This document shows positions 21,263 through 45,960 of a stretch of 64,000 nucleotides of DNA, one piece after another (the stretch's first letter is position 1; each line of letters opens with the position of its first letter). Where the stretch lies: positions 1 through 64,000 of IMG/VR virus record IMGVR_UViG_3300018080_000019; one strand, 5' to 3'. A program made the position numbers and the translations under genes. Source of the DNA: a virus. Below the pieces are notes generated by a model. That model made no database searches and was not told the DNA's origin. It saw nothing but the letters and a program-made list of their open reading frames with translations.

Positions 21263-21265
21263 AAG

Positions 21266-21342
21266 CCCGACCGGCCGGAATCGAACCAGCCCAAACAGAA
21301 ACCCCACGGTATACCGTGGGGCTTGTCTAGCCCACTAGTCGG
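21266..21342 (-). ncRNA. tRNA-like element with a tetraloop in place of the anticodon loop
   Basis: Minus strand has a T arm GCUGG-UUCGAUU-CCGGC (consensus T loop). The acceptor is CCGACUA/CGGUCGG, 6 of 7 pairs. The D arm is GGGC-UAGACAA-GCCC. The would-be anticodon arm is CACGG-UAUA-CCGUG. No encoded CCA. Confidence 0.4.
21291..21321 (-). terminator. hairpin plus U-tract (alternative reading of the same sequence as a terminator)
   Basis: Minus strand reads CCCCACGG-UAUA-CCGUGGGG (8 bp) followed by UUUCUGUUU. Confidence 0.5.
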
Positions 21343-23939: not shown

Positions 23940-24440
23940 GTGCCAAAAATCCCAGCTAAAAGGGTCTTTATTGGGGTAGACCCTGGTCAAGCCGGAGGCA
24001 TAGCTGCTCTAGTAAGGGACCGTTCCCCTACTCTATTGCTGATGCCCGACACGCCTAAGGATATTCTTGAAGCGTTATCCTCTCTAATCCCTCTCCGCAA
24101 TCCGTTATCTCTCACAACTAGTATTAGGGCTGCTATTGAAGACGTTCACTCTATGCCTAAACAGGGGGTCGCTAGTTCATTCAAGTTCGGTGTAAATAAG
24201 GGTCTACTAATCATGGCCCTTACCGCTTGCAAAATACCGTTCATCGCGGTGAGTCCTCAGAGATGGCAGCGAGCCCTTTCTATACGCCCCCGTGGTAGGA
24301 AGAACAATGAGTCCAAAAACAGTTTCAAAAAACGGTTACGGCAGAAGGCTCAAGAACTCTACCCACAGGCAAAGATCTCCCTGAAAACAGCTGATGCTCT
24401 ACTCATAGCCCATTACCTCAAATACCACGCGAGATTCTAA
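23940..24440 (+). CDS. RuvC-like Holliday junction resolvase
   Basis: GTG start with AGGAGGG upstream. Motifs are FIGVDPGQAGGIA (first Asp), AIEDV (Glu) and TADALLIAHY (C-terminal Asp). Confidence 0.65.
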   Translation: MPKIPAKRVFIGVDPGQAGGIAALVRDRSPTLLLMPDTPKDILEALSSLIPLRNPLSLTTSIRAAIEDVHSMPKQGVASSFKFGVNKGLLIMALTACKIPFIAVSPQRWQRALSIRPRGRKNNESKNSFKKRLRQKAQELYPQAKISLKTADALLIAHYLKYHARF

Positions 24441-24979
24441 TGACACCATTCCAAAAACACTACCGACAGTGGAAGAACTGTGACCGATGCCTTCTCCACA
24501 CACAACGAACTCATGTAGTTATTGCTTCAGGGAATGTACCCTGTGAAATAGCTTTCATAGGGGAAGCCCCTGGTGCTTGTGAGGACGTCTTAGCCGAACC
24601 GTTCGTGGGTCCAGCGGGACACCTTCTGGACCGTATCATCAAAGAGAGCGTGCCGTTGGAAGCCACCATCGGCAAAGGCAACCTAGTAGGGTGTTTTCCC
24701 AGTGAAGTCAAGGGTGATCCTGATCGCAGCAATGAACCCCCAAAAGAAGCGATCAAAGCCTGTCGTCCACGGTTGGAAGAATTGCTAGAATTGTTTAGCC
24801 CTCGTGTGTTAGTAGCAGTTGGTGAACTAGCTGCGAAGAATCTAAAGTGGTACGACGGTGCAGAGCATAAAGTGAAGATCATTCACCCTGCTGCCATACT
24901 ACGGGCAGACGTCAGTCAACAGGGCTTGTTGATAAAGCGGTCGATCGTGACAATTTCTAATTGTTTCTTACCGTTTTAG
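24440..24979 (+). CDS. uracil-DNA glycosylase family 4-like protein
   Basis: CDRC..., IAFIGEAPGACEDVLAEPFVGPAGHLLDRII and HPAAILR are the family 4 motifs GEAPG..E and PFVG.AG. Confidence 0.75.
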   Translation: MTPFQKHYRQWKNCDRCLLHTQRTHVVIASGNVPCEIAFIGEAPGACEDVLAEPFVGPAGHLLDRIIKESVPLEATIGKGNLVGCFPSEVKGDPDRSNEPPKEAIKACRPRLEELLELFSPRVLVAVGELAAKNLKWYDGAEHKVKIIHPAAILRADVSQQGLLIKRSIVTISNCFLPF

Positions 24980-26162: not shown

Positions 26163-26982
26163 ACTCAAACCACGGTCCAAACGTGTCTCTAAGAAAAGTC
26201 TGAAGGGGATCGCTGGTAGGATCAGGTCTGTTAGCGATACGTTCGGGGGCATCAAGTTGTTGCTCTACGGTCAAAGCAAGACCGGGAAAACCCGACTGGC
26301 TTGTACCTTTCCAAAGCCCCTGCTCCTTATAGGGGTCGCCGGTTACGGTATAGAAAGGGGAACCAAGAGTGTCTCCAACGTGAAAGGGGTAGACTTTGTC
26401 GGCCTAGAACGTACGGAGGAACTGGAAACCCTTATCAAGCTAGACTACGCTTCCTTTGTCTTAGACACGGCTGGAGGCTTGCAAGAACGGGTGGTCAACG
26501 AGTACACCCAACACGAAGCCACCGTGCGAAAGGATTGGCGACATGTCAGTAAGTCTGACTGGGGGCCAATCAACAGTAAGACGATGGAGGTACTCCAACT
26601 CCTGCTGAACTTGGCAGACTCTGAGAAGAAGTCCATCATAATAATCGCCCACGAACGGGCGTTCAATACGGATAGCGAAAGCGACTTGCTGATCCCCCAT
26701 GTGGGAGCAGCGTTGACTCCTGGTGTTGCTTCATGGCTCGACGGAGCGTCTGACTATATCGGTCAGTGTTACAAAAGGGAAGAAACCAGGAAGGAAACAA
26801 TCACCGTGGGGGATGAGGAAGTCGTTCAACACGTTCCCACCGGCAAGATTCAGTATTGCTTGAGGGTGGGTGAAGATCCGGTTTACAAAACAGGTTTTCG
26901 CGTCCCTGTTGGAACCGTGCTGCCTGACGCGATTGTGAATCCTACGTTTTCCAAATTGAAAGAGTTGATGAAAGGAGCGTGA
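26146..26982 (+). CDS. AAA_24 / Sak4-like RecA-fold ATPase
   Basis: Walker A LLLYGQSKTGKTRLA and Walker B SFVLDTAG, with IIIAHE. Synteny with the nuclease and polymerase. Confidence 0.6.
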   Translation: MPKVTKLKPRSKRVSKKSLKGIAGRIRSVSDTFGGIKLLLYGQSKTGKTRLACTFPKPLLLIGVAGYGIERGTKSVSNVKGVDFVGLERTEELETLIKLDYASFVLDTAGGLQERVVNEYTQHEATVRKDWRHVSKSDWGPINSKTMEVLQLLLNLADSEKKSIIIIAHERAFNTDSESDLLIPHVGAALTPGVASWLDGASDYIGQCYKREETRKETITVGDEEVVQHVPTGKIQYCLRVGEDPVYKTGFRVPVGTVLPDAIVNPTFSKLKELMKGA

Positions 26983-26984
26983 CA

Positions 26985-28028
26985 ATGCCGTCTACCAAGA
27001 CCAAAAGCAAGTTCGCAGCGAGCATGGGAAAGGAAGGAGCTCAAGCGGTTGCAAAGCACCGTGGAGATGCCACGAACTACGGTAACGTGGATCTTCCTGC
27101 CGGGATCGAGGGGGGCGTAGCCCAACTCATCGACTGCCGCCTTTCCCAGATCAAACCTGGGAAGAAGAACGCTGGAATGTGGTTCTTCATCGCAGCGGGT
27201 TCGGTCATTTCCCCAGAGCAGTACAACGGTATTCCAACCAAAGGCCTCCGCACTCAGATCATGGAAGTGATTGGTAATACCCCCACTCGGTCCAGAAAGA
27301 CCGTCGATGAGCACATCGAGTGGGTGCTCAACGAAGTACGTAAGTTCGGGGTGGACACCAAGAAGATCACGATCAACGAGTTGGAGACCGTGCTTGCAGC
27401 CCTCAAAAAGAAGAAGCCGAAGTTCCGGTTTCGCACTTGGAAGGGGCAGAAGCAAACGGAAGGCCCTTACGCTGGTATGGAGCCTATGACCCAGCATTCC
27501 TGGAATGGGCTCTACACTGGCGAAACCGAAGCCCCTGCTCCCCCTGTTCAAGACGATTCAGGGCCTGAAGAGCCTGAAGAGCCTGACGTTGAAGACGTTG
27601 AGGAAGAGGAAGGTGAAGAAGTAAACTTCCTCGAGCTAGGTGAACAGGCAGACGCTGGTGACGAGGACGCACTCACCGCTCTTGTCGACGCCGCTAAGGA
27701 AGCGGGCATCGATCCTGAAGACGACGAGTACGATACTTGGATGAAACTGGCCGAAGCCCTTGACGGTGCTGAAGGGGAGGAAGAGGAGGGGGAAGAAGAG
27801 GAAGAGGAAGAGGAAGAGGAAGAGGAAGAAGAGTTCGAGCCGCCTCAAAAGGAAGAGGTCTTCCTCTACAAGCCCCCTCGAAAAAAGAAGGCCATCGAGG
27901 TCGAGGTTCTTGCCGTCAACAGTAAGAAGAAAACTGTTACGGTCAAGAACAGTGAGACCGGCAAGAAGTTGAAGGGTGTGATCCCTTGGGATAAGCTCCA
28001 GGAAATCACGGTCGACGACGACGAGTAA
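26985..28028 (+). CDS. acidic protein, possible ssDNA-binding or recombination accessory protein
   Basis: ATG 26985 with AAGGAG 7 nt upstream. Poly-Glu tract (EEEEGEEEEEEEEEEEEEEF) and an acidic C-terminus (VDDDE). Function inferred from position only. Confidence 0.4.
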   Translation: MPSTKTKSKFAASMGKEGAQAVAKHRGDATNYGNVDLPAGIEGGVAQLIDCRLSQIKPGKKNAGMWFFIAAGSVISPEQYNGIPTKGLRTQIMEVIGNTPTRSRKTVDEHIEWVLNEVRKFGVDTKKITINELETVLAALKKKKPKFRFRTWKGQKQTEGPYAGMEPMTQHSWNGLYTGETEAPAPPVQDDSGPEEPEEPDVEDVEEEEGEEVNFLELGEQADAGDEDALTALVDAAKEAGIDPEDDEYDTWMKLAEALDGAEGEEEEGEEEEEEEEEEEEEEFEPPQKEEVFLYKPPRKKKAIEVEVLAVNSKKKTVTVKNSETGKKLKGVIPWDKLQEITVDDDE

Positions 28029-28408: not shown

Positions 28409-28989
28409 GTGACTTTACTGACTACGTTCAGAAGTCGTTGAAGGAGACACGGGCTAGGAGGCCTCGACAAAAGAAGATAGTTACTCGGCCCGAACTACTC
28501 TTACACCCAAACATCCCTGCCCCTCTCCATGGTCTAGCACCTAGAACCATTATGGGCAGCAAGTGGTGGGAGGCTACTAGAGAAGCAGCCTACCGTAAGG
28601 CTCACTACTGTTGTTTGGCTTGCGGTGTCCACAAAAGCAAAGCTAAGTTCCGTCAATGGTTGGAAGCCCACGAAACCTACCAGATCGACTGGCATAAAGG
28701 TCGTTCTGAGTACATAGAAACCGTGGCCCTTTGCCATTGTTGTCATAACTACATTCACAGTGGACGGTTGGAAGCTTTGCTCGAGGAAGGGCGGATTTCC
28801 CACGCGAAGTTCGCAGCAATCCATAGGCACGGTGACGAGATTCTTGCAAAGGCTGGACTAGCAAAGAAGGTGACTCTTGTTTCCAACGAGGCTCCTTGGG
28901 GGAAGTGGAGACTAGTGTTCAACGGTAAGCTTTACAAGCCAAAGTACAAGACCAAGAAGGCTTGGGAAAGGGCTTATGGGAATGATTAG
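28405..28989 (+). CDS. HNH endonuclease-like protein
   Basis: In-frame GTG at 28405 overlapping the upstream stop. Contains CLACGVHK...LEAHETY...CHCCHNYIH. Confidence 0.55.
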   Translation: MSDFTDYVQKSLKETRARRPRQKKIVTRPELLLHPNIPAPLHGLAPRTIMGSKWWEATREAAYRKAHYCCLACGVHKSKAKFRQWLEAHETYQIDWHKGRSEYIETVALCHCCHNYIHSGRLEALLEEGRISHAKFAAIHRHGDEILAKAGLAKKVTLVSNEAPWGKWRLVFNGKLYKPKYKTKKAWERAYGND

Positions 28990-31150
28990 CTTAGACACGG
29001 AGACTACCGGACTTGACTTGAGGCACGGTGCGAAGCCTTACCTTGTAACTACTTGCAACGAAGACATGGAGAACATCTACTGGGAGTGGGACGTTGACCC
29101 TTACACTCGAGAACCCAAGATCCCACGGAGGGACTTGAACCACGTTAAGCGGTTAATCAAAAAGGCCGACCTCCTGGTCTTGCAGAACCCTAAATTCGAT
29201 GTCTGTGCCCTTGCTCAGATTGGCATCAATGACTGGCCGTGGCACAAGACACGGGATACACTCATGGCGGGTCACTTGCTTGCCAGCAATCAGCCACATG
29301 ATCTGGCTACGATGGCCTTGATCTACGCAGACATAAACATCCAACCGTTGGAAGACACTATGAAGGGGGCTGTTGACGCGGCACGTTCCTACATACGTAG
29401 AGAGTTCAAAAAGCGACCGTGGCGACTAGCCCAAAGCGGCTTGCCAGAAATGCCGAGTGTGAAGGGGAGTAACAAGAAGCGAAAGGCTCGAGGGGGTGAA
29501 GAGTGTGGACCGTGGAAGCACGATGCTTGGGTGCCTAGAACACTCGCTTCGCAGTTGGACTACCCTAAGGATCATAGTTGGTGGGGAGTCACCAGTGACT
29601 ACGCTAACGGTGACAGTTCAAGTACCCTATTAGTCTATCTAAAGCAAGAGAAGCTTTTGAAGGAGAGGGGCTTGTGGAAAATCTACCTCGAAAGCCTCAA
29701 GCTCTTGCCTGTCATCTACGCTATGGAATCTCACGGTGTAACTCTAAACGTTGACCGTTGCGTAGAACTGATTGGCATCTACGAGAAGGACACTCAACGG
29801 CGGAAACGCATCTGTCTCCGGGCTGCTGGCGGTCAGCTCAAGGACCTACCGAAGGGCAGTAGGAGCAAGGCACTGACGAACGTTTTGCTGGGAACCCCCT
29901 GCGAGGACTGTAACGGTGAAGGGTACTTGTGGAACGAGACGGGTGGAGGCAAGAAGTCTTGTACTACTTGTTTTGGTAAGGGTCGCCACGGTGGATTTGG
30001 ACTTGTAAGCAATAAGACGACTCCAAAGGGGGCTCCCTGCTTGGACAAGGAAGTGTTGGAACACTGGTCTACTACTCTCAATCCACGGTCAAAAGCCTGT
30101 TTGTTTGTCCGTAACCTCAGGGAGTATCGCAAGCGGGCGACGGCCCTTAGCTACTTGCGGAGCTACGAAAAGTTCTGCCTCCCAACCGAAGCCGGAGAGT
30201 CGTGGCAGGTACTCCACCCCTCCCTGAATCCCACGGGTACTAGTACCCTTCGCTGTAGTAGCAACAATCCAAATGAACAGAACATTAGTAAGAAAGAAGG
30301 GTTCAACCTCCGCTACGTGTTTGGCCCTCTTCCTGGCCGTGAGTGGTGGAGCCTAGATGCTAAGAATATCGAGCTGAGAATACCTGCCTACGAGTGTGGA
30401 GAGCCGGAAGTTATAGAGTTGTTTGAGCATCCAAACATCCCGCCCTACTATGGTAGTGCCCACCTCCTAAACTTCAGCACCATCTACCCAGAAATCTGGG
30501 AGAAGGAGTTGGACGCTGTAGGGTTTGAAAAAGTGGGACCACACTGTAAGAAAAAGTATGAGTCGACGTGGTATCAGTGGTGCAAGAACTTCGACTTTGC
30601 CGTGCAGTATGGGGCGGTCCTAAAAGTAGATTCTGTCGGTACGGCTGACCGAGCGGCTCACAAGGAAGGGGCTCACGCTCTTGTCAAGGCACGGTTCGGC
30701 AAGCTGGATAGCCACAATCAGGCTTGCATAGACTTTGCCAAGAAGCACGGGTATATTGAGACTATACCTGATAAGAACGTAGATAAGGAGCGGGGGTATC
30801 CCCTGCTTTGCACAAGGAATCGGTGGGGAGGGGTAAAGCCTACGATCCCCCTCAACTACCGTACTCAGGGAACGGCAATGTGGTGGATGAGGAAAGGTAT
30901 GGTTCGATGTCACGCCTACTTGCAAACCTTGCCAGACCATCACATGGTGATGCAGGTCCACGACGAACTCGTGTTCGACATGCCCAAACGAAGACTCCGT
31001 GGTCGGAAGCCCTGGGAAGGCAACCGTACGATCGCTGCCGAACTGAAACGTCTTATGGAATTGGGTGGTGAAGACATTGGACTTCCAACACCCGTCAGCG
31101 TAACATACCACGAACACAACTGGAGTGAAGGGCTAGTCCTCTCAATATAA
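28976..31150 (+). CDS. family A DNA polymerase with 3'-5' exonuclease domain
   Basis: Exo I LDTETTGL and Exo II LQNPKFDV. Motif A SLDAKNIELRIPAY, motif B KNFDFAVQYGA, motif C MQVHDELVFD. Carries a CxxCxGxG...CxxCxGxG insertion at 29900-29993. Confidence 0.9.
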   Translation: MGMISLDTETTGLDLRHGAKPYLVTTCNEDMENIYWEWDVDPYTREPKIPRRDLNHVKRLIKKADLLVLQNPKFDVCALAQIGINDWPWHKTRDTLMAGHLLASNQPHDLATMALIYADINIQPLEDTMKGAVDAARSYIRREFKKRPWRLAQSGLPEMPSVKGSNKKRKARGGEECGPWKHDAWVPRTLASQLDYPKDHSWWGVTSDYANGDSSSTLLVYLKQEKLLKERGLWKIYLESLKLLPVIYAMESHGVTLNVDRCVELIGIYEKDTQRRKRICLRAAGGQLKDLPKGSRSKALTNVLLGTPCEDCNGEGYLWNETGGGKKSCTTCFGKGRHGGFGLVSNKTTPKGAPCLDKEVLEHWSTTLNPRSKACLFVRNLREYRKRATALSYLRSYEKFCLPTEAGESWQVLHPSLNPTGTSTLRCSSNNPNEQNISKKEGFNLRYVFGPLPGREWWSLDAKNIELRIPAYECGEPEVIELFEHPNIPPYYGSAHLLNFSTIYPEIWEKELDAVGFEKVGPHCKKKYESTWYQWCKNFDFAVQYGAVLKVDSVGTADRAAHKEGAHALVKARFGKLDSHNQACIDFAKKHGYIETIPDKNVDKERGYPLLCTRNRWGGVKPTIPLNYRTQGTAMWWMRKGMVRCHAYLQTLPDHHMVMQVHDELVFDMPKRRLRGRKPWEGNRTIAAELKRLMELGGEDIGLPTPVSVTYHEHNWSEGLVLSI

Positions 31151-31161
31151 GGAGACTTACT

Positions 31162-31389
31162 ATGGAATTCACTAAGACCTGTATCACCTGTTTGTACTGT
31201 CAGAAACACCCACGGGAAGTTGGACAGGGCTTCTGTCAAAGGTTCCCTCCAACAGTCTCTGCAGTAACCGTCCCTGGTCCCACAAGGAACAGTCTACAGA
31301 TCCAAACGATTACGTCATACCCAAAAGTAACTCTAAAAGAGCATACCTGTGCTGAATACGTGCGAAAGGAGCCTACTAATGGAGGTTGA
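31162..31389 (+). CDS. hypothetical Cys-rich small protein
   Basis: GGAGA upstream. Contains CITCLYC..C residues. Confidence 0.4.
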   Translation: MEFTKTCITCLYCQKHPREVGQGFCQRFPPTVSAVTVPGPTRNSLQIQTITSYPKVTLKEHTCAEYVRKEPTNGG

Positions 31390-32335
31390 AAAGGTGCGGG
31401 AGCATAAGAAGCCATTCACAAGGTTCTGGTATTGGATCAAAGAACGGCATAAGATTTACCTCAAGAAGCAAGCAGCAATGCCGAAGCCCTGGACCGACGA
31501 CGAGATCTTACAGAACTACTTCTTCACAAATCCTTACCGTGAACTAGACAAGACTACGCAATGGCTTCGCCGGCACGTTAGGGAACCCTTTGCAGATGAT
31601 CCAGCGATTTTCGTGGCCACGGTGATTTTCCGCTGGTTCAATCGTATTTCTACAGGGCACTTGTTGAGGTATGGTCGTCCCATAAACCACGGGTGTTCCG
31701 GGAGCCCTTGGAAGGTTAAGAAAGAGTATTGCTACCTCTACACTTGGAACGAGAAGGATGTTGTTACCGTGCTGGAAAAGGCACGGAAACATGGACCAGT
31801 GTTTACGGGGGCGTATATGATCAAAGCTGGTAACGGTCCTAAAGGTTGTAAGATCGCGAGCGTCTGTAAGGCAATCAGTTCTGTGTGGGAGGACCGTGAA
31901 GAACTGGTCGATCTCTGCCTCGAGTCTTCCAGCCTTGAAAAAGTATGGCAACGGTTGCTCAAGTTCGACTACCTTGGGAAGTTCATGGCTTATGAAATAG
32001 TGTGTGACCTTCGCTACACCTATCTTCTCAGGGATGCCGTGGATGTGCTTACGTGGGCCAATCCTGGTCCTGGAGCGAAGCGGGGACTTGCCAGAATGGA
32101 GGGGCGTATTCCAATTAGTCCAACGGGGCGTACGAGGCGGTTTGTGAAGGTAGACCATCCTATTGAGAAGATGCGTGGACTGCTTGCCAGGGTTTCTGGT
32201 AAGCTAGCTCTTTTAGATATGCCCCCCTTCGAGCTCCGTGAGATAGAGCACTCTCTGTGTGAGTGGGACAAGTACGAACGGGCTCTGTGGGGCAAGGGTG
32301 GCAAAATGAAAAGGAGGTATGATGGCTCTGCCTAG
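31379..32335 (+). CDS. putative DNA base hypermodification protein (aGPT-pyrophosphorylase / amino-acid:DNA transferase-like)
   Basis: ATG 31379 with AAGGAG 7 nt upstream. The N-terminus FWYWIKERHKIYLKKQAAMPKPWTDDEILQNYFFTNPYRELDKTTQW matches my recollection of that family (W..ER..I......PWT.D.IL....F.N.YRE.D..T). This was not verified by search. Confidence 0.45.
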   Translation: MEVEKVREHKKPFTRFWYWIKERHKIYLKKQAAMPKPWTDDEILQNYFFTNPYRELDKTTQWLRRHVREPFADDPAIFVATVIFRWFNRISTGHLLRYGRPINHGCSGSPWKVKKEYCYLYTWNEKDVVTVLEKARKHGPVFTGAYMIKAGNGPKGCKIASVCKAISSVWEDREELVDLCLESSSLEKVWQRLLKFDYLGKFMAYEIVCDLRYTYLLRDAVDVLTWANPGPGAKRGLARMEGRIPISPTGRTRRFVKVDHPIEKMRGLLARVSGKLALLDMPPFELREIEHSLCEWDKYERALWGKGGKMKRRYDGSA

Positions 32336-32534
32336 CTTTATAGAATTGTTGGAGTGGTGGGGTGATCTTACCGACGGGGACCGTAGGAACTTTATTACAC
32401 TCATCGAGTTGGAAAACCTCAATATTATCGACAGGATACCAGACAATAAATATAGGGAGATGGCATTGACTGCCTACATTATCAATTCCAGTACGAAACC
32501 ACTCTCTGAGTATGAGTTGGAGGAGGAAATATGA
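32319..32534 (+). CDS. hypothetical protein
   Basis: AGGAGG upstream. Coupled to its neighbours. Confidence 0.4.
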   Translation: MMALPSFIELLEWWGDLTDGDRRNFITLIELENLNIIDRIPDNKYREMALTAYIINSSTKPLSEYELEEEI

Positions 32535-32731
32535 TGTGTGCTGAAGGTTGTATTATTAAGCAGAACCAGACCTTCAACCAGGATGAGGCTAATCACCTAG
32601 TTGATTGTCTCCACTGTTCAGCGGTACTAGAACGGCTGGAACTGGCGGCTAACAGGAATGGTGGAGACACTGGATTCCTTGCAGCCGTGATCCGTGCCCT
32701 ATTGTTAGAAAGGATGTGCGATGATTTTTGA
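32531..32731 (+). CDS. hypothetical protein
   Basis: GGAGGAGG upstream, with ATGATG. Confidence 0.4.
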   Translation: MMCAEGCIIKQNQTFNQDEANHLVDCLHCSAVLERLELAANRNGGDTGFLAAVIRALLLERMCDDF

Positions 32732-33260
32732 CATACGTGGAACACATGGTAGCGGTAAGAGTTGGATCGTGCATCAGTTGTTGAAAAAGTTCGACTTTGA
32801 ACCAGTTGAACAACTCGGTATCCACCTTGGCTACTACAGTCAGCAACTAGACACTGGGATTCTCGGCAAGTATCGTAACATCTGCGGGGGTTGCGACGGT
32901 ATTAAGAGTGCCGACGAAGTGTGCCGGAGGGTGCGATTGTTCAAGGAGAAGTACCACCACACCATCCTTGAGGGTATTCTTGTCTCCCACACGTTCAAGC
33001 GGTACCACGAGTTAGCCGAAGAGCTAGGGGACTACACGTTTCTATTCCTAGACACGCCTGAGGAAGTGTGTATCGCCCGTGTGAGGAAACGACGGTTCCA
33101 CGCTGGTAGGACCAAACCATTCAACCCCTTTCATCTCAAGAATGACTACAGGCAGATTTGGACAAACGTCAGGGTTAAGATGGGAGAAGCTGGTCATAAT
33201 ATAGTCGTCTTGAATCACCGCGACCCTATGCCACAAGTCTTGGAGCTCCTCAATGCCTAA
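32721..33260 (+). CDS. P-loop kinase (candidate 5-hmdU DNA kinase type)
   Basis: N-terminal Walker A IRGTHGSGKSW. Small size (179 aa). Lies next to the hypermodification-like gene. Confidence 0.5.
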   Translation: MIFDIRGTHGSGKSWIVHQLLKKFDFEPVEQLGIHLGYYSQQLDTGILGKYRNICGGCDGIKSADEVCRRVRLFKEKYHHTILEGILVSHTFKRYHELAEELGDYTFLFLDTPEEVCIARVRKRRFHAGRTKPFNPFHLKNDYRQIWTNVRVKMGEAGHNIVVLNHRDPMPQVLELLNA

Positions 33261-34215
33261 ACTTATTCCCAATCAAAAACTCCTTGCAGATTTAGCGAAT
33301 ATGACCCACAAAGCGATGGAGACGGGGGACTTTGACCCTATGTATCCTATGCTGGATTGGTTATGTAAAGACATGGAAAAGGAAGACTCGATCTGGTATG
33401 CGATGTGTTATGTGGGTCATTACAATATCGCAAGTGGGGTGTGGTGCTTTCATGATCATCCCAAACAAGTGCGAAAGCTGAAGCGGAAGTATCCGTTGCG
33501 ATTCCAGCGTAGGAACTTAAATCCCGGCAACGAGTATGAACGGCATTGGGAATCGCTTTGGTCTCTGAAGAAAAAGTACGGTAGTCTCACTAAATGGATT
33601 GAACGGGGTATGACTGGGGACGGTAGGCATGACTTCTACTGGATTGATCAAGTAGTTCGTGAAGTTCGCGGCAATAACCGATGGGCTGGGATGAAACTGG
33701 GAGAAGTGCTGAAGTACACGACTTGGAGTCATGTTACCCCGTGTGATATGTGCCACCGTGCTAGTGCTAGTCCACGAAAAGGGCTCGGCCTATTCTTCAA
33801 GGACCCTGGTGGCAATTCGGATAAAGTAATTGCACAACTTGACAGATGGGGCGAGATTGTAACAAGGTCAGTCGCTAATAAGATAGGAAATACACGGTGG
33901 CCACTCGGTATCGCTGAGATGGAAAGTTGTTTGTGTGATTTCAAAGGAATGTATAACGGTAAGTTCTACAGTGGAAACTGTGCCGACGTTGTACTCGCCA
34001 CACTCACCAGTTCAAAGGCTCCTAACAAGCTATTAGAGCCGGTCTATGCTTCTCGAGCAGAGATATTCGATCATCGCGTGCTAGGTGAGTTTAGTGGCTG
34101 GAATGGTGTGGATAAACGTAGAAAGATCCTATACAAGAAATATGGAGCAATACCATGGAGATGGGAAACCTTGGAGAGTTTAGACCTGGAAACTTCTCGG
34201 TCGGAAATAGGGTAG
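33253..34215 (+). CDS. hypothetical protein (possibly a second base-modification transferase)
   Basis: Coupled start. No motif recognised with confidence; assignment is by context only. Confidence 0.45.
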   Translation: MPKLIPNQKLLADLANMTHKAMETGDFDPMYPMLDWLCKDMEKEDSIWYAMCYVGHYNIASGVWCFHDHPKQVRKLKRKYPLRFQRRNLNPGNEYERHWESLWSLKKKYGSLTKWIERGMTGDGRHDFYWIDQVVREVRGNNRWAGMKLGEVLKYTTWSHVTPCDMCHRASASPRKGLGLFFKDPGGNSDKVIAQLDRWGEIVTRSVANKIGNTRWPLGIAEMESCLCDFKGMYNGKFYSGNCADVVLATLTSSKAPNKLLEPVYASRAEIFDHRVLGEFSGWNGVDKRRKILYKKYGAIPWRWETLESLDLETSRSEIG

Positions 34216-34934
34216 TTTCAGTGACCGAAGTGTTTAGGTCTGTCAGCAAATGTTGGCAGGGACCTAGCATACAACCGCCGAAGGTGTTCGGCTCCGTGTT
34301 CGTAACACAATCGGTACGAACCCGCTGCTCATTCGAACGAGCAGCGATCGATCTGGGTATGGGTGTAATTACGGTCACTGAGCGTCGCGATAATGAACCG
34401 TTGCGGGACTTTGGCTTCGCAGTAGCCCAATCCTGTGATCTGTGTGTTGTTAGGTTATGGGGCAACGATTTTGAGGAGTTTGTGTCTGACATAGACATCC
34501 CAGTTATTGATGGTGGGCAGGGTACTAAGAGTCATCCAACGCAAGCCCTTGTCGACCTATACACACTAGTCGATAATGGCATTTTGCCTCCTGCTAGAAT
34601 CGGTCTATTCGGTCCCCCTGAAAACCGAACGATGCACAGCTTCCGTCAGCTAGCTAGTCAGTCAGGGTACCGTTGCTTTGAGTTTATGGATCAAGACCTT
34701 TTTAGTTGTAGGAAGGAGTACGACGTTATTTATGGAGTAACTTTTGGTAACTGGTACGGGGTGGAACGTTCTATCCCTAAAGGACTTACAGCAAAAATCA
34801 TGCACCCATTCCCTCGAGGGAAGGTGGTTCCATCCACCTACGATTTTACGGATCAAGACCTTTACCATCAGCAAATGAAAAACGCGATTAGAGTTAGGAG
34901 GGCTTTATGTGCGGTATTGTTGGATTCAATGTAG
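34155..34934 (+). CDS. aspartate/ornithine carbamoyltransferase-superfamily protein
   Basis: SVRTRCSFERAAIDLG is the S-x-R-T-R carbamoyl-phosphate motif. SHPTQALVDLYTL is HPTQ. IMHPFPRG is the ATCase-type HPxPR. At 259 aa it is shorter than canonical enzymes. Confidence 0.65.
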   Translation: MEMGNLGEFRPGNFSVGNRVVSVTEVFRSVSKCWQGPSIQPPKVFGSVFVTQSVRTRCSFERAAIDLGMGVITVTERRDNEPLRDFGFAVAQSCDLCVVRLWGNDFEEFVSDIDIPVIDGGQGTKSHPTQALVDLYTLVDNGILPPARIGLFGPPENRTMHSFRQLASQSGYRCFEFMDQDLFSCRKEYDVIYGVTFGNWYGVERSIPKGLTAKIMHPFPRGKVVPSTYDFTDQDLYHQQMKNAIRVRRALCAVLLDSM

Positions 34935-36487
34935 GAAAGGCTGGGAAAGTCAGCTCCTTACTCAAAATGTTAGATGCAGTCAAGCACCGTGGCCCTGATC
35001 AGGGTGGTTATCTAGTGTTTGGAGACACTTATCTTGGACACGCACGGTTGAAAGTTCGCGGCGGTGATAACCTGACTCAACCGTTCCTTTCAAACCATCA
35101 CTACTTAGATAGTTCTACACGGTGGGCATATTCCGTAAACGGTGAGCTCTATAATGAGAGAGCGTGGAGGGATACTGATTGCGAACTTGTAGCTCAGTAT
35201 GATGCTAGACAGTTAATCGGTGAGTTTGCCTATGCTGCTTGTAATTGTGCTTCAGATGAAACGGTACTATGCCGTGATCGATTCGGTATAAATCCAATGT
35301 ACTATTACTGGAAACCGGGGATGTATGTGTTTGCTAGTGAGATTGGAGCTATCAAAGCTTCTAACCTCGTTCCCTGGTCAGTTGATCCTAGAGCTCCTTG
35401 CCGTCAGTTCGTAAATATGATAGTCCCTAATCTTACAGACATCAAGGGTATTAAGGCGGTACCACCCGGATGCATAGTCACTCTAACAAGGGATAGGCCC
35501 CCAGTTGTTACGGAGTATTGGGACGTTCCTGTTGGTGAGGGGTGGCTTAGTGCTGAAGAAGCTGTGGATTCTGTTGTAGAGCAACTTACTACTGCCGTGA
35601 AGAACCGGACTAAAGATACAAAAGTTTTGGCCTATGTTAGCAGCGGTATGGATGGACAAATCATACGTAAACTAGGCAACCTTCCAAGTATTACATGCGA
35701 CTTTGGTGATGGGGACAACTACAGGGAAGCAACCCACACGATAACCGACTTATCCTACCGAGACGCGGAAGGGTACCATTCCTTAGAGGACTTGATGAGG
35801 GAATGTGCCCTTCGATCGGATCGAACTATCTACAATCCAATCGGGGTCGCGAAGTGGAAGTTGTCTCAACAGGCTCGAGAATTAGGGTACCGTGTGATAG
35901 TTAGTGGGCAAGGTGCTGATGAATTATTCTGCGGATACCAGTTTCTGCAAGAAAAACCGTGGGCTAGTTTATCCTCCAATAACAAAACGATCAGTCACCC
36001 TGCTTTTGAAGATTGCTTCGGTTTTACGCCTCAGATGTTTCATCCTTGGATACAACTGTGGGAAGCCAGCATATTTCATTCGGAGTATGATCCGTTCGCT
36101 GAAGTTGCCGAACTACTTGCTCCTAAGGTAAAGTCCCTTGATCGTATTACTCTTCAACAATACGTTTGGATCAAAACTCACTTCGAGTCCCAGATTTTGA
36201 CTTGGGGTGGAGACCGTCCAGAAATGACTAACAGTATAGAAGGGAGAGTACCGTTCCTTGACTTGGTGGATATAGCGTTTAGTATTAGAGCAGAAGAGCG
36301 GTTGAATAAGAAGGTGCTTCGACTGGCTTTTGATCAACACACACCAAAACGATCGTTCATGTTCCCATACTACAATATGGTTGAGCCGTATAAGTGTCCG
36401 TTACTACGTGAATCAGTCCACGGAGCCCTTGCTAATGTGGCTTACTGGCAATGGATCACTTGGAAAGCAATGTTTGGGGGGCAATAG
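34907..36487 (+). CDS. asparagine synthetase (glutamine-hydrolysing)-like amidotransferase
   Basis: MCGIVGF gives the Ntn class II glutaminase Cys2. The PP-loop-like motif is AYVSSGMDGQ. Length 526 aa. Confidence 0.75.
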   Translation: MCGIVGFNVGKAGKVSSLLKMLDAVKHRGPDQGGYLVFGDTYLGHARLKVRGGDNLTQPFLSNHHYLDSSTRWAYSVNGELYNERAWRDTDCELVAQYDARQLIGEFAYAACNCASDETVLCRDRFGINPMYYYWKPGMYVFASEIGAIKASNLVPWSVDPRAPCRQFVNMIVPNLTDIKGIKAVPPGCIVTLTRDRPPVVTEYWDVPVGEGWLSAEEAVDSVVEQLTTAVKNRTKDTKVLAYVSSGMDGQIIRKLGNLPSITCDFGDGDNYREATHTITDLSYRDAEGYHSLEDLMRECALRSDRTIYNPIGVAKWKLSQQARELGYRVIVSGQGADELFCGYQFLQEKPWASLSSNNKTISHPAFEDCFGFTPQMFHPWIQLWEASIFHSEYDPFAEVAELLAPKVKSLDRITLQQYVWIKTHFESQILTWGGDRPEMTNSIEGRVPFLDLVDIAFSIRAEERLNKKVLRLAFDQHTPKRSFMFPYYNMVEPYKCPLLRESVHGALANVAYWQWITWKAMFGGQ

Positions 36488-36496
36488 TATGCGCAT

Positions 36497-36525
36497 AAAA
36501 AAAGCCCCCGGCAATGCCAGGGGCT
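36497..36525 (-). terminator. Rho-independent terminator of the leftward gene 36543..36884
   Basis: Minus strand has an AGCCCCTGGCATTGCCGGGGGCT hairpin followed by TTTTTTT. It also sits right after the asnB-like stop. Confidence 0.65.
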
Positions 36526-36542
36526 CAGGGCTGCGATGGCTA

Positions 36543-36884
36543 CTACAGCTTCTTGGCCACCTTACGACCAGTGGAGGTCACCTTGAAATACTTTGCTCGG
36601 CTCCCCTCGTAGGTAGCTTCCTCTGCGTACCCCAACTCAATCAGCTTGGGGTAGCCAGTCGTGGTTCTGCCTACGGCCGCTTGCAGGTCTGCCCTTGTCA
36701 AGCCGTCCCCCTTCACGGGCTCCCCTGCCAGAACTTTGAGGGTCTCTGCTTGTCCTTGGGTCAGGCCAGCATCTTTGGCAGGGTTCTTGTCGGTGGCCTT
36801 GCCCTTGCCCTTGGCCTTGCCCTTGGTGGCTTTGGTGGCCTTGCTCTTGGCGGTAGCTTTCTTCTTCGCAGGTACTTTCGGCAT
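36543..36884 (-). CDS. winged-helix DNA-binding protein with histone H1-like K/A-rich N-terminal tail
   Basis: KKKATAKSKATKATKGKAKGKGKA tail followed by LTQGQAETLKVLAGEP...LTRADLQAAVG...GYPKLIELGYAE...YFKVTSTG. It has its own promoter and terminator. It is the lone minus-strand gene in a plus block. Confidence 0.6.
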   Translation of the reverse strand: MPKVPAKKKATAKSKATKATKGKAKGKGKATDKNPAKDAGLTQGQAETLKVLAGEPVKGDGLTRADLQAAVGRTTTGYPKLIELGYAEEATYEGSRAKYFKVTSTGRKVAKKL

Positions 36885-36938
36885 GATAATGCTCCTGTGT
36901 GTGAGAGTGTGAAATATGGCCGCCCGTGGCGGGTGGCT

Positions 36939-36954
36939 ACTATGTATAATGTAT
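36939..36954 (+). promoter_or_regulatory. conserved 16-mer ACTATGTATAATGTAT (copy 2), rightward -10 candidate
   Basis: Identical to 23689-23704. TATAAT at 36945-36950 overlaps the leftward -10. Confidence 0.45.
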
Positions 36955-36976
36955 ACAATGGTCGGGGGTTTTGCAA
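36948..36976 (-). promoter_or_regulatory. leftward promoter for 36543..36884
   Basis: Minus strand reads TTGCAA (36976-36971), a 17-nt spacer, then TACATT (36953-36948). Its upstream region is shared with the 21651-21697 promoter. Confidence 0.45.
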
Positions 36977-37036
36977 CCCCAAAATAGCAAATTTAGCAAA
37001 ATAGTCGTAAGTTGTTTCTACATAAAGGGTTACGAC

Positions 37037-37630
37037 ATGATAAAAAAGCCTATCAAAGGCGTATTGCTGGACCTCGACGAGGTACTAGCCGACTTTGCTG
37101 GTGGTGCTTGTAGGGTACACGGTAAGCGGTTGGAAAACCTGGAACCGGGCGAGCCGCGAGACTTGCAGGTAAAGCTGGGACTGAGAAGCAAAGAGGCGTT
37201 CTGGAAACCAATCAATTCCCGGGGGATAAGCTTTTGGGAGTACTTGGAACCGCTACCTTGGATAGAAGAACTCCTCATAATAGCCAGGGCCCTCAGTGAA
37301 GAACCCATCAGAATTATCACTACACCACCGTCAGGTCCAGGTGCTCATCTGGCAATTCTAGGAAAGCACAGATGGCTAGTTAAGATCCTTGGATGGACTG
37401 ACAGGAACCGATACATATTCACGCGGGATAAAAAGATCTACTCCTTGCCTGGATACGTTCTTATAGATGACAGCCGAAAGAACGTAGTGCGGTTCAGTGA
37501 AGGGAGAGGTCTCGGAATCTTGTTCCCTGCCTACTTCAACCAGTATTACGAAGAGCGGAACAATCCTTTGCCTCGAGTTACAAATGCCCTATTACAAATT
37601 GGAGAACACAATGCACTTCACTTTCCGTAA
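37037..37630 (+). CDS. HAD-superfamily 5'(3')-deoxyribonucleotidase-like phosphatase
   Basis: ATG 37037. GVLLDLDEVLADFAGG matches the NT5C-type motif I (DxDxVLADF). Also YVLIDD. Confidence 0.6.
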   Translation: MIKKPIKGVLLDLDEVLADFAGGACRVHGKRLENLEPGEPRDLQVKLGLRSKEAFWKPINSRGISFWEYLEPLPWIEELLIIARALSEEPIRIITTPPSGPGAHLAILGKHRWLVKILGWTDRNRYIFTRDKKIYSLPGYVLIDDSRKNVVRFSEGRGLGILFPAYFNQYYEERNNPLPRVTNALLQIGEHNALHFP

Positions 37631-38882
37631 CGTCAACGAAGCGTTCCCTAAGCTGGTTTCTTTCATGTGTGACCCTTCCTCCGTGGGAAGCCCCCCTAGT
37701 GCGGTTCGTAAGGAGGATAGTCGCAACGGTCCTGTCTTGCGTGTAGCAGAACCTGTGACTGTGACCTATACCAATCCACGGGAAAGAGTACTGTTCAACT
37801 ACGGTAGGGATTGCAACCCCTTCTTCCACCTGTTCGAAGCACTATGGATGCTGGCAGGTCGCAACGATGTGAAGCCCCTGGTTTACTACAACCCGCGGAT
37901 GGCGGAGTATAGTGATGACGGGCAAATATTCCATGGGGCTTACGGTCATCGTTGGCGGAATCAGACAATCTCCGTGTGGAATTCTAATAGTCCTAGGACA
38001 GAGTCCTGCCCCCATTGTGGGATGTCGGAAGAACCGTTTGACCAGATAGAGGCAATTATTGCCCATCTGAATAGTGATCCTAACTCTCGCCGCGAAGTAC
38101 TCCAGGTATGGGAGTATCAGGCAGACTTGTGGGCACGTCCAAAAGGGGCGAAGGATCTACCGTGCAATACTCAAGCATACTTCTCCTTACGGGAGTTGCC
38201 TGATAGAGGGCCTATTGCAGAAGATGGGTCTTTCCAATCCCACGTTGTGAAACACGCCTTGGATATGACCGTGTGCAATCGTTCCAACGATCTTGTCTGG
38301 GGTATGCTCGGTGCGAACGTAGTGCATTGGAGTATGCTCCAGGAGTACCTAGCAAATTGTCTAGCAAATTGTCTTGAAGTAGAGGTTGGTCACTACCATC
38401 AGTTCACAAACAATCTACACGTTTACACAGAACGGTTCACTCCTGAAAAGTGGTTTCCGTTGACCCACCCGAAGACGATGCACGACCCTGTTGAGTTAGA
38501 CTACGGTCCACCATCAGGGGCTCAGGCGATCAACCAGATACTAGGGAAGTTTGACGGGACGAAGGCCCCTTACGAGATTCTCCCGTACCGCTTGTCCCTG
38601 GTTCACGATAAAGCCACGTTCGACGAGGAGGTAAATATCTTCATCGACTATATTGATGATTACCGGTTGAACGGGGCAGACGGTTTTTACCAGGAGCCGT
38701 TCTTGCGGGATGTTGCTCAACCGATGATGGCAGCCTTCCGGGCACACAAGAATCGACGGTATCGTGGGGACAATAATGCTTTCACACTGATAGAACGTGT
38801 TCACGCTGACGATTGGAGAGCCGTCGGTAAACAGTGGCTTCGCCGACGGTGTGAAGCTTGGGATAAGAAGGGAGAGAAGTGA
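37611..38882 (+). CDS. thymidylate synthase-family pyrimidine C5 transferase (candidate dUMP hydroxymethylase)
   Basis: ATG 37611 with GGAGA upstream. Motifs are RDCNPFFHLFEALWMLAGRND, YGHRWR, FDQIEAIIAHLNSDPNSRR, LPCNTQAYF (catalytic Cys), CNRSNDLVWGMLGANVVH and NNLHVY. About 100 aa longer than ThyA. Confidence 0.7.
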   Translation: MHFTFRNVNEAFPKLVSFMCDPSSVGSPPSAVRKEDSRNGPVLRVAEPVTVTYTNPRERVLFNYGRDCNPFFHLFEALWMLAGRNDVKPLVYYNPRMAEYSDDGQIFHGAYGHRWRNQTISVWNSNSPRTESCPHCGMSEEPFDQIEAIIAHLNSDPNSRREVLQVWEYQADLWARPKGAKDLPCNTQAYFSLRELPDRGPIAEDGSFQSHVVKHALDMTVCNRSNDLVWGMLGANVVHWSMLQEYLANCLANCLEVEVGHYHQFTNNLHVYTERFTPEKWFPLTHPKTMHDPVELDYGPPSGAQAINQILGKFDGTKAPYEILPYRLSLVHDKATFDEEVNIFIDYIDDYRLNGADGFYQEPFLRDVAQPMMAAFRAHKNRRYRGDNNAFTLIERVHADDWRAVGKQWLRRRCEAWDKKGEK

Positions 38883-44355: not shown

Positions 44356-45960
44356 ATGAACAACGTCTGTGACCCGCTACGACTCCGCGACCTGCTTTGG
44401 CCTGATGTGGTCTTCTACGACAAGCAAGTCGATATCATCTACAGCGTTTGGAACGACGATGAGACGGTAGTCCCCGCTGGAAATATGTTAGGCAAGGACT
44501 TCGTGGGAGCGTTCATCATCCTGGCCGTTTTCCTAACACGTAACCCTTGCCGTATCATTACGACCAGCGTGAAGGATGCCCACCTTGACGTTCTATGGGG
44601 CGAGATGAACCGCTTCATCCAAGAGGCCGCGAGTCCCCTCCGCGTAGAAGAAGGCGGCCCCCTCATAGTCAACCAAAAGTTCATCCGCAAGATTTACGAA
44701 GGCGAAGTTGAGCCGCTGAGCTACATACGTGGGATGGTAGCTGGTCCCGACACGGTCCAATCATTCCAGGGACATCACATTGCCAAGACCGGCGACAGGG
44801 TTCCTAGAACGATGCTAGTCGGCGACGAAGCTAGTGCCCTCAGTCCAGTCATCGTGGATACGATGGCCCGTCCATGGGCGAACCGTATTTTCCAAATAGG
44901 CAACTGCTGGGACTGTCCCCCAGACAACTCTTTCCGTTCCGCCGTTGAAGGTGTTCCCGGAGGGCAAGCTGGTGGAGACATCCCTGACCCTGACAATCCT
45001 GGACGCTACTACCGACGCGTGATCAAAATCCGTGCCGAGGATAGCCCGAACGTTCAATATGGTCTACACCAGAAGCGTATGGGATTGACTCCTACGGACG
45101 AGATGCTCATCCCCGGTGTGCTCAGCTACAGCGATTATATAAAGCGACGCAGAACGTGGGACCCCATCAAGCAGACGGTCTCCTTGGATGCCGAGTTCTA
45201 CAAGGGTCCACAGATCGTAATGTACCCCGAGGAGTGGCTGGAAGAAGCAGTCGCTCGAGCCGCAAAACTCTCCAGCCTCCGTACGGGTCTGGCGATGGGT
45301 GTAGATAGTGCGATGGGTGGAGACAATACGTCGTTCGCCGTTACTGATACCCGAGGGCTTATCTACCTTGAAGGGCTTAAGACGGTAGACACTACCCTGG
45401 TCGTAGACAAGGTTCTCGAGCTGAAGCATCGCTTCCAAATACCTGCGGAGAACATCCTGTTCGACTACGGTGGTGGAGGCAAGCCTCACGTAGACAGAAT
45501 GCGACGTATGGGACACGCTGTTAGAGCCGTCCAGTTTGGAGCAAGTGCAACTCCGTTCAAGCGACGCGGCGTTACTACTCTTCAGGAAAGAATCCGGGCG
45601 GATGAGATTCGCCTTGGATTCAAAAACCGAAGGGCCGAAATGTACTGGCTGCTACGTGAGGTTCTAAATCCCAACTATCCAAGTCCCTTCGCCCTCCCCT
45701 CGAAGCTGCTCTATGCAAAGCGGCTCGACGGTGGACCCAGTCTGTATCACCAGCTTCTGGCCGTTCCGCTTCGCTACGACGAGGAAGGCAGAGTGTACTT
45801 ACCACCGAAACGTGCTAGGACAGACGACCCTCGAGCCGCTGACAAGGAGACTATGACTAGCCGAACGGGTTGTAGCCCTGACGAAGCTGATGCCCTGGTG
45901 CTAGGCGTATTCGCCTTTGCGAAGCAAATTTACCGTGCAACAGCGGGAGTAATTAGCTGA
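44356..45960 (+). CDS. terL: terminase large subunit
   Basis: Walker A-like VPAGNMLGKDF and Walker B MLVGDEAS. Nuclease acidic residues in AMGVDSAMGGDNTSF and CSPDEADALV. Confidence 0.8.
   Translation: MNNVCDPLRLRDLLWPDVVFYDKQVDIIYSVWNDDETVVPAGNMLGKDFVGAFIILAVFLTRNPCRIITTSVKDAHLDVLWGEMNRFIQEAASPLRVEEGGPLIVNQKFIRKIYEGEVEPLSYIRGMVAGPDTVQSFQGHHIAKTGDRVPRTMLVGDEASALSPVIVDTMARPWANRIFQIGNCWDCPPDNSFRSAVEGVPGGQAGGDIPDPDNPGRYYRRVIKIRAEDSPNVQYGLHQKRMGLTPTDEMLIPGVLSYSDYIKRRRTWDPIKQTVSLDAEFYKGPQIVMYPEEWLEEAVARAAKLSSLRTGLAMGVDSAMGGDNTSFAVTDTRGLIYLEGLKTVDTTLVVDKVLELKHRFQIPAENILFDYGGGGKPHVDRMRRMGHAVRAVQFGASATPFKRRGVTTLQERIRADEIRLGFKNRRAEMYWLLREVLNPNYPSPFALPSKLLYAKRLDGGPSLYHQLLAVPLRYDEEGRVYLPPKRARTDDPRAADKETMTSRTGCSPDEADALVLGVFAFAKQIYRATAGVIS

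Follow-up and report, generated by a model that had tools for sequence, protein, structure and literature searches.

The window analysed here, 64,000 nucleotides of a phage sequence (IMG/VR virus record IMGVR_UViG_3300018080_000019, positions 1 to 64,000), harbors a gene cluster (31379-38882) that very probably hypermodifies thymidine. The core of the cluster is the established hydroxymethylase, kinase and transferase pathway, while the tailoring pair, a transcarbamylase with aspartate transcarbamylase (ATCase) fold and an AsnB-like glutamine amidotransferase, is new, above all the transcarbamylase family. Taken as a whole, the cluster is probably best explained by thymidine hypermodification in which carbamoylation and amidation serve as tailoring reactions and lead to an undescribed base. 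It consists of seven open reading frames (ORFs) within 7.5 kb:

31379-32335, + strand: PF18723 (HMUDK_hel) protein; Pfam E 1.7e-51, 175.7 bits against a cut-off of 25
32721-33260, + strand: candidate P-loop 5-hydroxymethyldeoxyuridine (5-hmdU) DNA kinase (5-HMUDK); PF18748 (HMUDK_HMUD1), 21.4 bits against a cut-off of 27
33253-34215, + strand: amino-acid:DNA transferase (AADT; Pfam ADDT, PF18724) of a divergent 'LCD' type; 31.3 bits against a cut-off of 26.2
34155-34934, + strand: short ATCase-fold transcarbamylase, 259 aa; OTCace_N, E 5e-22
34907-36487, + strand: AsnB-superfamily glutamine amidotransferase; GATase_7 and Asn_synthase, E 2e-25
37037-37630, + strand: NT5C/HAD-type 5'(3')-deoxyribonucleotidase; Pfam NT5C, E 6e-11, 42.9 bits against a cut-off of 24.8; phrog_2643
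37611-38882, + strand: enlarged ThyA-fold enzyme, 423 aa; Thymidylat_synt, E 6e-16; PHROGs phrog_5131, 2e-94

When genes were called independently on other contigs of this phage, the boundaries were the same; the last 28 nt of the transcarbamylase gene are shared with the start of the AsnB-like gene. The block recurs on other contigs at 31-55% amino-acid identity. Chance cannot explain the presence of seven pathway-related families inside 7.5 kb. An initial annotation of the window had located all seven genes and ordered them into a hypermodification route of hydroxymethylase, kinase and transferase, a logic that is supported by the family assignments and by homology to Pseudomonas phage PaMx11, whose thymidine-modification region was used as comparison reference. 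Profile and homology searches bore out its family calls for the kinase, the ATCase/OTCase-like and AsnB-like enzymes, the NT5C-type nucleotidase and the ThyA homologue; two neighbors had to be exchanged. The gene at 31379-32335, taken for the transferase, encodes the PF18723 protein, and the supposedly unknown 320-aa protein at 33253-34215 is the PF18724 transferase with its catalytic Glu and Cys kept.

ATCases were the top matches of the transcarbamylase in a sequence search of solved structures (1ml4, E 4.5e-20), with ornithine transcarbamylases (OTCases) well behind. The AlphaFold2 model (predicted local distance difference test, pLDDT, 84.7; predicted template modelling score, pTM, 0.87) was matched by Foldseek to complexes of ATCase with N-(phosphonacetyl)-L-aspartate (PALA) at template modelling (TM) scores of 0.77-0.82. 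Residues were mapped by aligning eight family members to the E. coli ATCase, and the motif correspondences agree with HMMER alignments to solved ATCases. The carbamoyl-phosphate site (S52, R54, T55, R56, R105, H134, Q137 and H265-P-F-P-R269) is invariant in all eight members, as is R167, the ligand of the aspartate alpha-carboxylate. The ligands of the beta-carboxylate are lost in every one of them, R229 being replaced by T or S and Q231 by G or N. The stretch between R167 and H265 comprises 48-59 residues compared to 98 in E. coli; the 240s lid loop is gone and the second domain is approximately 40-50 residues shorter, which suggests an unusually open site. With the ATCase equivalog TIGR00670 the window protein scored 94.3 bits (cut-off 236.95), and it lay far under the cut-offs of the OTCase and putrescine-transcarbamylase equivalogs. 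The ornithine/putrescine transcarbamylase signature is absent as well, since HPFP is found instead of HCLP and there is no SMG loop. Altogether, the enzyme has the fold, the full carbamoyl-phosphate site, Arg167 and the HPxPR motif in common with the ATCase catalytic chain (PyrB), but is approximately 50 residues shorter, lacks the 240s loop and has R229, Q231, K84 and E50 replaced.

Because the carbamoyl-phosphate site is kept, the aspartate ligands are lost, the scores fall below the equivalog cut-offs and other short transcarbamylases are canonical, the protein appears to descend from ATCase and to be a carbamoyl-phosphate enzyme whose second substrate is new. Those other short transcarbamylases (267-280 aa) were rejected as members of the family, as they keep YxTRxQxER and are ordinary mini-ATCases. 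The sequence 'GNWYGV', considered as a clue to the 230-loop specificity of putrescine transcarbamylases, was also rejected; the insertion is private to the window sequence and absent from the other members. The isoelectric point (pI) was dropped as a proxy to distinguish DNA-acting from metabolite-acting enzymes, given that tailoring enzymes shown to act on DNA (gp46 and gp47 of PaMx11, gp226 and gp247 of ViI) have pI values of 5.7-6.7. The values of 6.4 for the transcarbamylase, 6.0 for the AsnB-like enzyme and approximately 9 for kinase and transferase are uninformative on DNA action.

The transcarbamylase family is very small. A word-indexed search of 5.8 billion proteins returned four members. 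Among 1.84 billion cluster representatives, searched exhaustively by profile, six reached E < 1e-30, after which the score dropped from 199 to 106 bits. Pattern scans for further members or contexts in IMG/VR (twice) and in JGI metagenome contigs (once) gave no confirmed relatives. The family was found in eight distinct contexts, the window and the contigs or contig groups L001, L009, L010, L012, L013, L014-16 and L017-18, all of them beside hypermodification genes and arranged in three layouts:

Layout A (window, L001, L009, L010, L013): transferase, transcarbamylase, AsnB-like enzyme
Layout B (L014-16, L017-18): radical-SAM protein, transferase, pyridoxal phosphate (PLP) enzyme, Amidoligase_2-like protein, ATP-grasp protein, transcarbamylase, Cupin_8/JmjC protein
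Layout C (L012, a 2.5-kb contig, 248-2512): Amidoligase_2, transcarbamylase, N-terminus of the AsnB-like enzyme

For the L009 transcarbamylase the version of the gene caller was too short, the full ORF being 9159-9983. Layout B (L014:5109-11667 and L017:5164-11574) is found on marine/environmental contigs of the same phage group. Its PLP enzyme is a PALP protein, its radical-SAM protein is 58.5% identical to the isomerase of phage M6, and its transferase is of the glycine type (LCK...Y, with Lys and Tyr); the cassette is predicted to form a different, more elaborate thymine derivative. In L012, Amidoligase_2 (27.3 bits against a cut-off of 22) occupies the place of the transferase, and this contig suggests that the transcarbamylase and the AsnB-like enzyme move as a two-gene unit. 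The scaffold on the long contigs (window, L001, L009, L014 and L017) consists of PolA, the PF18723 protein, the kinase, the cassette, the ThyA homologue, a primase and a helicase-like protein. Judged from these sequences, the related contigs seem to represent one broad uncultured phage group, across which the cassette varies; PolA is approximately 40% identical, and the transcarbamylase and AsnB-like enzyme are kept at 42-50% identity.

The close group of the AsnB-like enzyme comprises four proteins, all encoded in this module, before the score falls from 509 to 212 bits. The next relatives are cellular asparagine-synthase paralogues of 650 aa (approximately 32% identity), and the window protein is approximately 130 residues shorter. 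Its structural model (pLDDT 86.4) was most similar in Foldseek to the hydroxyamidotransferase TsnB9 (TM 0.72), followed by AsnB (TM 0.56) and beta-lactam synthetase. As in AsnB and TsnB9, an N-terminal nucleophile (Ntn) glutaminase is combined with a pyrophosphate-loop (PP-loop) domain. The glutaminase half is intact, with Cys2 (MCGI) and the glutamine-binding residues present and HRGPD, NGExYN and Asp91 invariant. In the synthetase half, the motif SGQGADELF is found in all four phage members, whereas all 116 cellular homologues have TGEG[SA]DE. The equivalent of E. coli AsnB is SGEGSDE, including Glu348 (alignment to 1ct9), for which the phage proteins, unlike AsnB, have Gln, at position 335 of the AsnB-like enzyme. 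Mutagenesis of AsnB is said to have shown that Glu348 is required for acyl-adenylate formation. The PP-loop reads S[SNG]GMDG instead of the SGGIDS of the cellular proteins and departs from the canonical SGGxDS, and with 180.4 bits the protein scored below the cut-off of the AsnB equivalog TIGR01536 (267.1). Because these changes are conserved within the clade, the enzyme is most plausibly regarded as re-specialised and non-decaying.

The core of the cluster can be compared with a pathway that has been reconstituted with pure enzymes, namely that of PaMx11 for 5-acetylaminomethyldeoxyuridine (5-AcNmdU), in which gp46 (AADT), gp47 (FAD lyase), gp48 (acetyltransferase), gp49 (5-HMUDK), gp50 and gp51 (ThyA homologue) take part (PMC8989533). 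Both regions share the core logic, homologous core genes, the catalytic Glu/Cys motif and the placement of the tailoring genes, with the transferase on one side of them and the remaining block on the other. Where PaMx11 encodes the FAD lyase and the acetyltransferase, the window has the transcarbamylase and the AsnB-like enzyme; the window transferase is only approximately 23% identical and has Asp for the glycine-binding Lys248, and the phage backbone is unrelated. The pathway of M6 for 5-(2-aminoethyl)deoxyuridine (5-NedU), with an AADT, a PLP decarboxylase, a radical-SAM isomerase and a 5-HMUDK, is similar in its kinase-then-transferase chemistry. The window cluster, unlike M6, has neither a radical-SAM nor a PLP enzyme, while its sisters L014 and L017 carry the M6-like radical-SAM protein.

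The PF18723 protein, whose family we take to be the one formerly named aGPT-Pplase clade 1, is 40% identical to PaMx11 gp50 and bears the motif ELREIEHSLCEWDKYER. Based on the E-x-E-x-x-L-C motif seen by eye and on PMC8989533, it is probably a paralogue of the transferase. A profile-profile comparison of the transferase clade with PF18723 proteins returned nothing, on an alignment that was very shallow and polluted by two unrelated actinophage proteins. On our reading of the gene order, its counterpart in M6 is gp55, which is dispensable for glycinylation in lysates (PMC8989533).

The kinase scored below the gathering score of PF18748. It is, however, 29% identical over the full length to PaMx11 gp49 (E 2e-23), a biochemically demonstrated 5-hmdU DNA kinase (PMC8989533), and both have the GSGKS (Walker A) and CGGCD motifs. 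Since the orthologues on L001 and L009 were moreover recorded as PF18748 matches, the gene product is retained as a candidate 5-hmdU DNA kinase. It also matched phrog_800 (6.5e-20), which we read as the mis-named family of gp49; the GenBank annotation of gp49 as 'terminase small subunit' would explain the name.

The ThyA homologue is 40% identical to PaMx11 gp51, with which the catalytic Cys (LPCNTQ) and the uracil-specifying Asn (LGAN) are aligned. The latter residue had made dUMP a plausible substrate in the initial annotation, and the present data agree. With 48 bits the protein lay far from the cut-off of the thymidylate-synthase equivalog (327), its best sequence match among solved structures was the CMP hydroxymethylase MilA, and its only relatives at the DNA level were genes of M6/PaMx11-like and Bordetella phages, several of which are annotated as deoxyuridylate hydroxymethyltransferase. 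It is predicted to be a dUMP hydroxymethylase. Relative to gp51 it has private insertions, one of which holds a CPHC motif (…RTESCPHCGMSEEP…). In the NT5C protein the HAD motifs DLDEV and LIDDS are intact in translation, and it is a candidate for a dTMP-depleting enzyme. A phage-induced dTMP nucleotidase is established for Bacillus phages with 5-hydroxymethyluracil (5-hmU).

Close homologues of the transferase are very few among 5.8 billion proteins. Of the cultured phages, those of Gordonia, Rhodococcus, Mycobacterium and Microbacterium carry its nearest relatives, their aGPT-Pplase2 genes (27-32% identity over at least 87% of the length, E down to 4e-36 in tblastn), aGPT-Pplase2 being the former name of the PF18724 family. 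The active-site stretch AEMESCLCDFKGMYNGKFYSGNC aligns with the counterparts of PaMx11 and YuA (motif AEMESCLCDFK; AEMESCLC compared to QEVETILC). In the resulting E-x-E-S-x-L-C signature Glu and Cys are retained, while the Thr of the metal-binding Glu-Thr pair is replaced by Ser; the Glu, the Glu-Thr and the Cys are essential in characterised transferases (PMC8989533, PMC13458397). When solved structures were searched with the profile of the transferase clade, nothing better was obtained than a weak match (E 0.1) to 25qc, an entry for an amino-acid:DNA transferase; it served for motif alignment alone. The positions determining the donor are Lys248/Tyr257/Asp262 in the glycine type and Gly/Asp/Asp in the diamine type (PMC13458397). 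The window transferase has Asp, Phe and Cys and fits neither type; the Asp found where the glycine type has its carboxylate-binding Lys could point to a donor with a positively charged group.

In Gordonia phage Wooper and Rhodococcus phage Tonitrus the transferase gene lies in a ParB, TET/JBP, transferase and kinase cluster (PMC11955845, PMC13229309). Such clusters hold the closest cultured transferase relatives (29-32% identity), which share the LCD motif after the catalytic Cys, but they oxidise T in DNA to 5-hmU, whereas the window uses the ThyA homologue, and both the transcarbamylase and the AsnB-like gene are missing from them. A Pfam scan of window ORFs revealed no TET/JBP gene. The gene following the actinophage kinase showed no similarity to the PaMx11 gp47-type FAD lyase, a relationship that would have narrowed down the donor of the LCD type.

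The proposed pathway would start with the ThyA-fold enzyme converting dUMP to 5-hydroxymethyl-dUMP, with the nucleotidase probably helping to exclude dTMP from the pool. The phage PolA would incorporate 5-hmdU in place of T. After replication, the hydroxymethyl group would be phosphorylated by the P-loop kinase, and the phosphate would be displaced at the Cys/Glu site of the transferase, which attaches a small molecule bearing an amine or a hydroxyl group. These steps are assigned by homology to characterised enzymes; the two that follow are based on catalytic residues and gene context only. The ATCase-fold enzyme would transfer a carbamoyl group from carbamoyl phosphate to a free amine on the attached moiety, and the AsnB-like enzyme would turn a carboxylate, or some other activated group, into an amide with ammonia drawn from glutamine. 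An uncharged, so far undescribed thymidine bearing a ureido and/or a carboxamide group is the expected product. Amine carbamoylation and carboxylate amidation had already been suggested in the initial annotation and, as we infer, are consistent with the retained catalytic residues. It is likely that the two enzymes contribute a carbamoyl group and/or an amide nitrogen to the final base.

In the preferred version, the appended group would expose an alpha-amino-acid head, with its side chain tethered to the DNA, and the enzyme pair would cap the amine and the carboxylate. Such a tethered-side-chain substrate is proposed because Arg167 is kept while the beta-carboxylate ligands and the lid loop are lost. 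Plain carboxylate amidation by the AsnB-like enzyme is an assumption in this version. As one alternative, the AsnB-like enzyme might deliver ammonia to an already activated center to give an aminomethyl group, which the transcarbamylase would convert to a ureidomethyl group, a near-isostere of the acetylaminomethyl base of PaMx11.

Several points weigh against a tailoring of DNA by this enzyme pair. The phage is uncultured and known from sequence alone. To our knowledge, all known enzymes of the ATCase/OTCase family act on small molecules, and one acting on DNA would be unprecedented. In the transcarbamylase family, Lys84 of ATCase is not conserved, and Glu50 is replaced as well. As the donor residues of the transferase match no characterised subtype, the tailoring substrate cannot be named. 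The exchange of Glu348 for Gln and the degenerate PP-loop of the AsnB-like enzyme may indicate a chemistry other than carboxylate amidation. Furthermore, the conserved adjacency of the genes is in part due to shared ancestry (PolA approximately 40% identical) and not independent evidence. That the transcarbamylase acts directly on a DNA-tethered substrate is considered quite possible, at slightly less than even confidence.

The two enzymes might alternatively make an unusual free donor before its attachment by the transferase or a ligase, for instance a ureido-diamino acid or its amide, or a second building block in clusters of the L014 type. We regard this as rather unlikely, but it is the best of the competing explanations. 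It agrees with the small-molecule substrates of all characterised ATCase/OTCase members (PMC3282769) and with the Asp that replaces the carboxylate-binding Lys in the window transferase, which may need a non-standard donor (PMC13458397). In L012, L014 and L017, moreover, the transcarbamylase adjoins amidoligase or ATP-grasp ligases that could attach a pre-made N-carbamoyl amino acid. However, carbamoylation abolishes the nucleophilicity of an amine, so that a further amine or a hydroxyl group would be required on the donor, and with the lid loop gone and the second domain reduced, the site may be unusually open. Two genomic observations favor tailoring after transfer. Layout B combines a glycine-type transferase with an M6-type isomerase, and the M6 glycinyl-thymine isomerase works on DNA (PMC8989533); therefore no exotic donor is needed there. 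The actinophage transferases with the LCD motif lie in clusters without a transcarbamylase or AsnB gene, so that the LCD donor is probably an ordinary host metabolite. Most simply, the extra enzymes of layout B, including the transcarbamylase, would act after the amino acid is on the DNA or on a second building block that is then added by a ligase.

A phage that stops at 5-hmdU or at the bare transferase adduct, with the extra enzymes being inactive relics or serving an unrelated role (on a protein or a cell-wall precursor), is very improbable. Key residues do deviate in both proteins (transcarbamylase: K84, R229 and Q231; AsnB-like enzyme: E348 and the PP-loop), but both are 42-50% identical across lineages in which PolA is approximately 40% identical, their other catalytic motifs are invariant, and even the altered motifs are conserved (SGQGADELF in 4 out of 4), the pattern of a functional, re-specialised enzyme. 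That both are auxiliary metabolic genes for the pyrimidine and asparagine supply of the host, placed in a nucleotide-metabolism block by coincidence, would suit their location among nucleotide-metabolism genes and the ATCase of chloroviruses, which reportedly serves nucleotide supply, but is hardly credible given the loss of R229 and Q231 in 8 out of 8 transcarbamylases, the replacement of Glu348 in the AsnB-like clade, the scores below the equivalog cut-offs (94 compared to 237 bits for ATCase, 180 compared to 267 for AsnB) and the recovery of the transcarbamylase family from hypermodification clusters only.

A carbamoyl group on a phage pyrimidine is not unprecedented, as the MetaGPA study reportedly described 5-carbamoyloxymethylcytosine; this concerns cytosine, an O-carbamoylation and a different carbamoyltransferase family. 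Full-text literature searches, in which Iyer et al. 2013 was not covered, returned no paper linking the ATCase/OTCase family or asparagine synthase to phage DNA hypermodification, and the word 'carbamoyl' is absent from PMC8989533, PMC13229309, PMC5889632 and PMC13458397. Amidoligases and glutamine amidotransferases have been noted as uncharacterised neighbors of thymidine-hypermodification genes (PMC8989533, PMC13229309). The accessory enzymes, called unprecedented in the initial annotation, hence deserve this term in the case of the ATCase-fold transcarbamylase and only partly in the case of the AsnB-like enzyme.

Three further features were recorded within or directly next to the cluster:

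36502-36526, - strand: terminator-like hairpin, 11-bp stem with 8 G-C pairs followed by a T-run; consensus match alone
36543-36884, - strand: lysine-rich ORF of 113 aa; tblastn matches at the equivalent position in L001, L009 and L010
39048-39656, + strand: conserved protein of 202 aa without family match, directly after the ThyA homologue

The minus-strand ORF and its downstream hairpin split the block into two plus-strand units. The 113-aa protein, for which no significant family match was found in Pfam and PHROGs and at most faint winged-helix hints were seen, could be a regulator or a DNA-binding protein. Copies of the 202-aa protein (43-48% identical) lie directly after ThyA in L001, L014 and L017; with the window, it is present in four of the five lineages compared and was not detected in L009. 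It had no match in Pfam, PHROG and NCBIfam and may belong to the nucleotide-supply part of the pathway.

Upstream of the cluster, a gene of the uracil-DNA-glycosylase superfamily (24440-24979; PF03167, E 3e-20) is encoded in this phage, which is predicted to route dUMP into thymine replacement. Between an AAA_24 gene and the HNH and PolA genes lies a very acidic protein of 349 aa (26979-28028, pI 4.5) with a long poly-Glu run; it is kept in L001 and L009 and had no family match. A tRNA-like gene was called by ARAGORN at 21265-21342 (- strand), with a two-base anticodon undetermined; it could be a spurious prediction or a decayed tRNA. An N6/N4 DNA methyltransferase gene is located downstream of the replication block in L001 (19959-20753) and L009 (18794-19678), while no counterpart was seen among those window ORFs that were scanned. 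In 50,697 cultured-phage records, the window PolA (28976-31150) had no tblastn match at E 1e-20, and the sole match of the putative large terminase (44356-45960) was Actinoplanes phage phiAsp2 (24% identity); the lineage appears to be without cultured relatives.

Tailoring after transfer is favored here, because layout B needs no exotic donor and the LCD transferases of actinophages lack a transcarbamylase or AsnB partner. Tentatively, and with slightly more doubt than conviction, we propose that the transcarbamylase is the first carbamoyl-phosphate-dependent enzyme of its kind to act on a DNA-tethered group, giving a ureido-bearing thymidine, and that it is a tailoring enzyme common to at least three cassettes, each leading to a different undescribed base. 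The cassettes meant are transferase with AsnB-like enzyme, amidoligase with AsnB-like enzyme, and radical-SAM with PLP, amidoligase-like, ATP-grasp and JmjC proteins. Post-replicative hypermodification of thymidine is a known counter-defence of phages, and the tailoring enzymes known so far are decarboxylases, a radical-SAM isomerase, a flavin lyase and an acetyltransferase. If the proposal is true, two new reaction types, carbamoylation and glutamine-dependent amidation, would be added, and one new DNA base at the least, more probably a small family of bases, would be expected. Such enzymes are of practical interest for producing DNA with new major-groove chemistry and new nuclease resistance. 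The family signature of the transcarbamylase makes further members easier to find. It would also be the first case in which the classic ATCase fold was recruited from small-molecule metabolism to a nucleic-acid-linked substrate.

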